Assembly: GCF_003334335.1 (NCBI RefSeq)
Contig: NZ_QOWQ01000118.1
Reading direction: 5' to 3' (one strand)
Length of the DNA: 1,221 bases
From: Escherichia coli
Lineage (GTDB): Bacteria > Pseudomonadota > Gammaproteobacteria > Enterobacterales > Enterobacteriaceae
The translations under genes were made by a program, and so were the position numbers. Shown here piece after piece: positions 1-1,221 of the stretch. Position 1 is the first letter of the stretch; each line of letters opens with the position of its first letter. Below the pieces are notes generated by a model. The model had not been told where the DNA came from. It did not search any database and worked only from the letters and a program-made list of their open reading frames with translations.

Positions 1-26
1 TGTAGATTCAATCTGTCAATGCAACA
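1..26. repeat. Terminal inverted repeat (IRR with respect to the transposase orientation), 26 bp
   Basis: Window 1-26, TGTAGATTCAATCTGTCAATGCAACA, matches the reverse complement of 1196-1221 at 23 of 26 positions (mismatches at repeat positions 13, 14 and 20). Similarity stops at position 27. Confidence 0.9.
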
Positions 27-1159
27 CCCCTTTCAATTATCTCTTTCGGTGTTTTGAACTTCAGTGTCTTTCTCGGTCTGTTGTTTAGCTGAGCAGCAAC
101 CAGATCTAGTTCATGTTGAGTATATTGGGCAAGACATGTCTTTTTAGGAAAGTACTGCCGAATTAGCCCATTTGTGTTCTCATTTGTTCCCCGCTGCCAA
201 GGACTCTGAGGATCGCAGAAGTAAACTTTAACGCCGGTGCTGACAGTAAATTCTAGATGTCTGGCCAGTTCCATTCCTCTGTCCCATGTCAGTGATTTTC
301 TGAGTTCTGACGGTAAACTCAGGAATTTGTCGGTAAGAGCCTGATTTACTGAGACAGAATCTTTGCCCCTGAGTCTAAGGATGATCGTATAACGTGATTT
401 TCGGTCTACAAGTGTGGCTATATGAGAGTTTTTTGTACCTGAGACTAAATCGCCCTCCCAATGCCCCAGAGAGCGTCTGTTATCGATATTTCGGGAACGT
501 TCGTGAATTGGTGTTCCGTTCACTATGTTAATCGTACCTCTTTCGCCTTTGCGGGTATGACGCCTGCCATGGCGAAGGCTATGCGACCGTCGCAGATGCT
601 GTATATTCAGGTGGTGTAGCGCTTCACGGCTACGAAAGTACAGCGTTTTATAAATTGTCTCAGGTGATATTCGCAGCGTTTTTTGACGTGGTTTTGTTCG
701 CCTTAACCATCCTGATATTTGCTCTGGAGACCATTTCATCTCCAGCTTTTCCAGAACAAGCTTTCGCAATGGTAAATTTTGATCCAGTAAGCACGGTTTT
801 GGCCTTTTCGCCATTCTGTTGGCTCGGTTATTAGCATCAACAGCTTTGTAATAGCGTCTGCCCCGATTACGCTGAACTTCACGTGAGATCGTCGAAGGAC
901 TGCGATTCAGCGCAGTAGCTATCGCACGAATGCTCATTTTGGCTGACAAACCAGCTCGTATCTCCTCGCGCTCAGACAGTGTCAGGTGAGCTACAGCCCG
1001 CTTACGCTCATGGGGTTTTATGCCGCCAGTATCCCTTAACATAGTGAAGATCGTTCCGGGTTTTGAACCCAGGATATTCGCTATTTCACTGAAGCCTGTT
1101 CCGTTCTTCCATAGTTCAAAAACAGAGGCTTTTTCCTCTGCTGTAAATGTTCGTCTCAT
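8..1159 (-). CDS. insI: IS30-family DDE transposase, 383 aa (InsI-like)
   Basis: Single uninterrupted ORF from ATG (reverse complement of 1157-1159) to TGA (reverse complement of 8-10). A GGAGG ribosome-binding site lies 8 nt upstream. The catalytic residues read directly from the translation are D237 in HWEGD (codon 449-451), D293 in LTWDRG (codon 281-283) and E327 in GTNENT (codon 179-181), giving D(55)D(33)E spacing, which is the IS30-family signature. The N-terminal third has helix-turn-helix-like segments. I assign insI from recognising the protein as E. coli IS30 transposase; this is recall, not an alignment. Confidence 0.95.
   Translation of the reverse strand: MRRTFTAEEKASVFELWKNGTGFSEIANILGSKPGTIFTMLRDTGGIKPHERKRAVAHLTLSEREEIRAGLSAKMSIRAIATALNRSPSTISREVQRNRGRRYYKAVDANNRANRMAKRPKPCLLDQNLPLRKLVLEKLEMKWSPEQISGWLRRTKPRQKTLRISPETIYKTLYFRSREALHHLNIQHLRRSHSLRHGRRHTRKGERGTINIVNGTPIHERSRNIDNRRSLGHWEGDLVSGTKNSHIATLVDRKSRYTIILRLRGKDSVSVNQALTDKFLSLPSELRKSLTWDRGMELARHLEFTVSTGVKVYFCDPQSPWQRGTNENTNGLIRQYFPKKTCLAQYTQHELDLVAAQLNNRPRKTLKFKTPKEIIERGVALTD
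14..19 (-). promoter_or_regulatory. Outward-facing consensus -35 hexamer (TTGACA) inside the terminal repeat
   Basis: Plus-strand TGTCAA at 14-19 is TTGACA on the minus strand, reading toward and out of the element terminus, with 13 bp between the hexamer and the end. No matching -10 exists inside the element, so any promoter would need a -10 supplied by flanking DNA or by an abutting repeat. Confidence 0.5.
155..472 (-). other. DDE (RNase H-fold) catalytic core of the transposase, about residues 230-335
   Basis: Contains the three acidic residues D237, D293 and E327 with 55 and 33 intervening residues, in conserved local contexts (HWEGD, TWDRG, TNENT). Boundaries are approximate. Confidence 0.7.
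860..1159 (-). other. N-terminal DNA-binding region of the transposase (about residues 1-100, two helix-turn-helix-like segments)
   Basis: Translation shows HTH-like stretches (…EKASVFELWKNGTGFSEIANILGSKPGTIF… and …LSAKMSIRAIATALNRSPSTISREVQRN…). Established knowledge: IS30-family transposases carry N-terminal HTH motifs that recognise the terminal repeats. Boundaries are approximate and not profile-verified. Confidence 0.6.
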
Positions 1160-1167
1160 TCAAAAAA

Positions 1168-1172
1168 CCTCC
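1168..1172 (-). promoter_or_regulatory. Ribosome-binding site (Shine-Dalgarno GGAGG) for the transposase
   Basis: Plus-strand CCTCC at 1168-1172 is GGAGG on the minus strand, 8 nt upstream of the ATG at 1159-1157, followed by a T-rich spacer (GGAGGTTTTTTGAATG). Confidence 0.8.
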
Positions 1173-1187
1173 GCAACCCCATGTTTT

Positions 1188-1215
1188 CACATAACTGTTG
1201 CGTTGACCAATTGAA
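1188..1215 (-). promoter_or_regulatory. Putative weak native transposase promoter overlapping the inverted repeat
   Basis: Inference: only poor sigma70-like hexamers are present in the 62 nt between the terminus and the ATG, for example TTCAAT then a 16-bp spacer then TATGTG on the minus strand. This fits the generally weak expression of IS transposases. Exact boxes are uncertain and no transcription start site can be read from sequence. Confidence 0.25.
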
Positions 1216-1221
1216 TCTACA
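1196..1221. repeat. Terminal inverted repeat (IRL with respect to the transposase orientation), 26 bp
   Basis: The reverse complement of 1196-1221 is TGTAGATTCAATTGGTCAACGCAACA, matching 1-26 at 23 of 26 positions. It lies 36 nt upstream of the transposase start codon on the minus strand. Confidence 0.9.

Follow-up and report, generated by a model that had tools for sequence, protein, structure and literature searches.

A 1,221-bp Escherichia coli sequence read as a single full-length IS30 element

Results and Discussion

The window analysed here, a stretch of 1,221 nucleotides from an Escherichia coli contig (NZ_QOWQ01000118.1), is taken up almost entirely by a single long open reading frame on the minus strand, which starts with ATG and spans positions 8 to 1159. 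This transposase gene, insI, accounts for 1152 of the 1221 bases and encodes 383 amino acids plus the stop codon, the product being annotated as WP_001254932.1 in identical copies, with computed values of 44.3 kDa and a pI of 10.9. A first-pass annotation of the window had described a full 383-aa transposase with its ribosome-binding site, and both are in place: a Shine-Dalgarno motif GGAGG can be read directly from the sequence at 1168–1172 on the minus strand, 8 nt before the start codon (1157–1159), within an untranslated leader of 36 nt that reaches from the left terminal inverted repeat to the start codon (1160–1195, minus strand, likewise read from the sequence). The accompanying statement that the window holds the element and nothing else also stood up, as passenger genes, Rfam families and tRNA-sized features are all absent from it; the Rfam search gave no match on either strand at E values up to 1. 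Further ORFs of 35–64 aa on either strand all overlap the transposase gene and, lacking any evidence of their own, were not counted as genes.

Sequence profiles from Pfam place an N-terminal helix-turn-helix region ahead of an rve catalytic core, in the order typical of the IS30 family. The HTH_38 DNA-binding domain (PF13936, E 1.3e-18) covers residues 58–98, encoded at 866–988 on the minus strand, and a second match to the same profile at residues 6–41 (1037–1144, minus strand) marks a weaker first helix-turn-helix that with an E value of 0.014 is below significance when taken alone. The RNase H-like integrase core rve (PF00665, E 9.8e-14) follows at residues 229–320 (200–475, minus strand). 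Over the complete length of the NCBIfam model NF033563 transpos_IS30 (profile positions 1–267 of 267), the protein scores 276.3 bits against a cut-off of 80, which assigns it to the family. A search of solved structures by sequence found none matching the transposase.

Three acidic residues are the candidate catalytic triad, all encoded on the minus strand: D237 in the motif HWEGD (449–451) and D293 in TWDRG (281–283) lie inside the rve core, and E327 in NENTNG (179–181) lies just after it. They are separated by 55 residues between the two aspartates and by 33 residues between the second aspartate and the glutamate; the IS30 family reportedly carries a DDE triad with exactly this spacing of 33 residues. 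We aligned the window protein with eight IS30-family transposases from Klebsiella (ISCfr4), Rhodococcus, Acinetobacter, E. coli (ISApl1), Vibrio, Agrobacterium, Lactiplantibacillus (ISLpl1) and Enterococcus (IS1252). Although these relatives are only 28–47 % identical to the window protein, D, D and E are invariant in all nine family members, in agreement with the intact triad described beforehand. The same alignment shows that IS30, ISCfr4 and the Rhodococcus relative are extended at the N-terminus by about 50 residues, which contain the weak first helix-turn-helix (alignment columns 1–110); this extension is absent from ISApl1, ISLpl1, IS1252 and the Acinetobacter, Vibrio and Agrobacterium elements. 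The Rhodococcus ORF additionally features an insertion of 33 residues ahead of the WSPEQI motif and one of 18 residues in the core.

The coding region is framed by two terminal inverted repeats of 26 nt, occupying positions 1–26 and 1196–1221. Since the window is antisense to insI, the usual convention makes the repeat at 1196–1221 the left one (IRL) and the repeat at 1–26 the right one (IRR), neither being assigned to a strand as a feature. The two arms are imperfect, with 23 of 26 positions complementary (88 %) and three mismatches; at least 23 of 26 matches at one fixed pair of positions would arise by chance with a probability of about 1.6e-11. The last six transposase codons and the stop codon (8–10) fall inside IRR. 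In IS30 the inverted repeats measure 26 bp (PMC9333248), and IRR is a site of transposase binding and cleavage. One long ORF and terminal inverted repeats of 20–30 bp in an element of about 1.0–1.25 kb make up the architecture of the IS30 family, and the window displays all of it.

To locate the ends of the element, the window was compared with 18 full-length copies from 18 loci in other records, a small sample of top hits that may not be independent of one another. The flanks of these copies vary from one to the next, and resemblance to the window breaks off precisely at its bases 1 and 1221. The two 26-bp repeats of the first-pass annotation, and its assertion that the window begins and ends at the element termini, are thus both borne out.

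When searched against 5426 complete E. coli genomes by megablast, the window matched 3825 of them in altogether 9766 places, and at least 80 % of its length was covered in 3111. In at least 25 E. coli records the full 1221 bases are matched without a difference (100 % identity), and the identical E. coli loci are annotated as 'IS30-like element IS30 family transposase'. Matches were also found in 1363 plasmid records, the majority from Escherichia, followed by Citrobacter, Klebsiella, Enterobacter, Salmonella and Shigella, with exact copies on plasmids of E. coli, Klebsiella quasipneumoniae and Citrobacter. The chromosome of E. coli K-12 MG1655 carries three full-length copies annotated as mobile elements of exactly 1221 bp, namely IS30A (270541–271761), IS30C (1469296–1470516) and IS30D (4507459–4508679), and it is this K-12 annotation on which the element length of 1221 bp rests. 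They share with the window the length, the 26-bp inverted repeats, the 383-aa transposase InsI and the ribosome-binding site; the window is given on the strand opposite to the usual convention.

By the isoform convention of ISfinder, copies of one element share at least 95 % nucleotide identity with the reference element over the full length. The window agrees with IS30A at 1219 of 1221 positions and with IS30C and IS30D at 1220 of 1221, which corresponds to the near-identity with K-12 IS30 that had been expected (99.8–99.9 % over the full length). None of the three MG1655 copies is matched exactly: IS30C and IS30D are a single silent base apart from the window, and of the two bases that set IS30A apart one is silent, while the other turns L261 of the window into V261. 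With its end-to-end 100 % matches to annotated IS30 loci, the one intact IS30-type element proposed at the outset can be named more closely. Judged from its sequence, the window is most probably a full-length E. coli IS30, the type insertion sequence, in antisense orientation and with no host flank, and we put the probability of this reading at about 97 %. Such a copy is an ordinary, already known textbook insertion sequence. The first-pass annotation had rightly rated it as belonging to a thoroughly described family and not as a novel system, the structure, target choice and copy-out-paste-in pathway of IS30 having been published. As a discovery it carries little weight, and a genome scan would do best to mask this window or flag it as an already described mobile element instead of following it up.

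The typical IS30 duplication of 2 bp, which had been predicted for the insertion site, was found immediately outside the ends of 13 of the 18 sister copies, as AG, AC/GT or GC. The short target-site duplication of the IS30 family (2–3 bp) is therefore documented via these sister copies, which are identical or nearly identical to the window, the window itself being without flank. The 13 duplicated copies reduce to six distinct reconstructed empty sites, and their half-site profile reads TnnTnAAnAAnGC followed by the 2-bp duplication, which with so few sites serves as a small-sample illustration. IS30 has a palindromic hot-spot consensus ('GOHS'), and the six-site profile illustrates it.

The remaining five copies (L002, L003, L007, L011 and L012, the K-12 copy IS30D among them) lack the 2-bp duplication, and in all five the left and right flanks derive from two different IS3-family target sites. 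This suggests recombination between copies, or an inversion or deletion mediated by IS30, so that the missing duplications would be due to later rearrangement and not to a different insertion chemistry.

Most of the sampled natural IS30 copies (L004, L006, L009, L011 and L013–L019) lie inside IS3-family elements of the IS911/IS600 type, and they do so at a homologous position directly behind the A-run in orfA, ATATTAAAAAA(A)GCC / GGC, with junctions at locus positions 300/301 and 1521/1522. Insertions at this position are present in at least three diverged IS3-family hosts. In K-12, IS30A (L009) is located within IS911A, and IS30D (L011) between IS911B and IS600. Other settings occur as well. 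In two E. coli chromosomes (L001 and L005, locus 1–1584) an exact IS30 is inserted between two genes for ibs type I toxins; an AG duplication flanks it, and its right-hand junction precedes the downstream ibs start codon by 6 bp. In NZ_AP027553.1 (L008, locus 1508–3725), an IS30 copy positioned between an IS3-family fragment and IS600 is split by an inserted IS903B and adjoins a frameshifted porin gene.

Surroundings of this kind raise the question whether the window is itself one side of a more extensive arrangement, be it an (IS30)2 tandem dimer, a compound transposon bounded by IS30 or a nested insertion sequence. A single insertion sequence with nothing else would then be true of the window but not of its locus. 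In its favour, natural copies are in many cases embedded in IS3-family elements or lie beside fragments of other insertion sequences, the mismatched flanks of five of the 18 copies point to rearrangement, and IS30 dimers and cointegrates are documented (PMC9333248). We consider such an arrangement quite unlikely for this copy, and as it concerns the context only, it does not contradict the identification of the window as IS30.

The recurrence of the orfA spot leads to a more general idea, namely that IS30 may in nature systematically favour the site ATATTAAAAAA(A)GCC-NN-GGC in orfA of IS3-family elements. If this were true, other insertion sequences would be its favoured landing places and would be disabled by it, acting as safe-haven or competitor targets. 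We regard this preference as doubtful, and set a second possibility beside it, in which silent changes at positions 464 and 467 of the window tune the antisense control of the transposase.

Both of these positions are third codon positions at which silent variants recur (758 and 755 in conventional numbering). Position 464 is changed from C to A in a copy on a Salmonella plasmid (L015) and from C to T in a copy on an ExPEC plasmid (L019), and position 467 is changed from C to T in the K-12 copies IS30C and IS30D. An internal antisense promoter of IS30 has been described at about 730–760 (review, PMC9330008), and 464 and 467 both fall within this zone. On the plus strand of the window, a weak promoter-like pair consists of ATGCCC (461–466) and GATATT (485–490) with a spacing of 18 nt, and base 464 would be part of its -35 hexamer.

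A further regulatory signal resides in the ends of the element. IRR contains a perfect, outward-directed -35 hexamer TTGACA at 14–19 on the minus strand, which is the only TTGACA in the element, and IRL holds a -10-like TAGATT at 1214–1219 on the same strand. Joining IRR, two arbitrary bases and IRL in silico yields TTGACA and TAGATT with a spacer of 17 nt, a match to the consensus in 10 of 12 positions, and this promoter, of which IRR supplies one half, arises only in the IRR-NN-IRL configuration with its 2-bp spacer. The arrangement fits the published promoter at the circle or dimer junction of copy-out-paste-in transposition. Junction promoters of IS30, as well as fusion promoters formed from the outward -35 hexamer in IRR, have been described (review, PMC9330008).

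For the single element, a scan for consensus sigma-70 promoters and intrinsic terminators returned none of either, fewer than in shuffled sequence; this simple consensus scan recovered neither the resting transposase promoter nor the published antisense promoter nor any terminators, and a relaxed promoter scan of the left end reached a match of 7 of 12 positions at most. Since no stand-alone promoter appeared in the scan, expression of the transposase from a resting copy would rest on a weak, putative promoter.

The published pathway of IS30 is of the copy-out-paste-in type and proceeds through a figure-eight intermediate and a minicircle or (IS30)2 dimer, with 26-bp ends and a 2-bp spacer at the junction; a staggered attack 2 bp apart gives rise to the 2-bp duplication (PMC9333248). 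The sequence of the window is consistent with this route through an IRR-IRL junction, the pathway itself being taken from the literature. Following published IS30 work, the transposase would use its N-terminal helix-turn-helix region to bind the inverted repeats, nick one end and join it to the other, and thereby generate the figure-eight. Host replication would convert this form into a minicircle or, where two copies take part, into an (IS30)2 dimer; in either product IRR and IRL abut across 2 bp. The abutted junction, with TTGACA in IRR, TAGATT in IRL and the 17-nt spacer, would provide a strong promoter and hence more transposase. Both ends would then be cleaved and inserted 2 bp apart, either into a hot-spot target or beside another IS30 end, and repair of the insertion would leave the 2-bp target duplication.

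We strongly infer from the sequence that this copy is transposition-competent, because it encodes the same protein as K-12 IS30C and IS30D and both of its ends are intact. It might instead be a fossil that merely looks intact and has been silenced by a disabling substitution or by defective ends. Activity cannot be read from a sequence, and residue 261 does differ from K-12 IS30A, with L in the window and V in IS30A. This explanation appears very improbable to us nevertheless, given that the protein is the one encoded by IS30C and IS30D and recorded as WP_001254932.1, an entry annotated in all eleven exact copies that were fetched and in one further copy with a single silent difference, and that both inverted repeats and the catalytic triad are intact. 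The exact 1221-bp sequence furthermore occurs at many sites, on chromosomes as well as plasmids, in four genera, a distribution that requires recent mobility. An intact and probably competent IS30 copy would give rise to insertions, deletions, inversions and fusions of replicons, and its outward -35 hexamer can turn on adjacent genes.

Several relatives share the architecture of IS30, so the window could in principle be a different IS30-family element such as IS30H, ISCfr4 or ISApl1, a chance that is practically negligible in view of its 99.8–100 % identity to IS30 proper. IS30H, an E. coli plasmid element that is an isoform or relative of IS30, gives a full-length colinear match of 1221 bp (H50); its nucleotide identity of about 90 % makes it a separate element under the usual isoform threshold. 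The transposase of ISCfr4 is 47 % identical to that of the window at the protein level. ISApl1 and ISAba125-like elements are shorter than IS30; their transposases possess HTH_38, the rve core and the invariant D, D and E with the same D-E spacing region, but share 37–40 % protein identity and lack the first 50 or so residues with the first helix-turn-helix. These identity values (about 90 % at the DNA level for IS30H, 47 % and 37–38 % at the protein level for ISCfr4 and ISApl1) refute all three as identities of the window. The IS911/IS3 family, whose members are frequent targets of IS30 in the sampled genomes, follows the same two-step pathway of figure-eight, circle and junction promoter (PMC9333248, PMC9330008), but is a different family in which the transposase is made from two ORFs by programmed frameshifting.

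Partial copies of IS30 were encountered in several collections. Among phages, the single match was an internal IS30 fragment of 280 bp in Escherichia phage phi456 (OR339795.1, 54505–54784), which corresponds to positions 108–387 of the window at 98.9 % identity and is annotated as a hypothetical protein. Truncated remnants recur on plasmids of different genera (H53–H65), representing window positions 1–129, 1–153, 341–1221 and 722–1221, and most of them are unannotated in the PLSDB gene table. Finally, ISApl1 is known for mobilising mcr-1, and the sampled copy (L023, NZ_MN476098.1, locus 230–1424) is located about 200 bp upstream of mcr-1.1, a neighbourhood that represents a known colistin-resistance arrangement.
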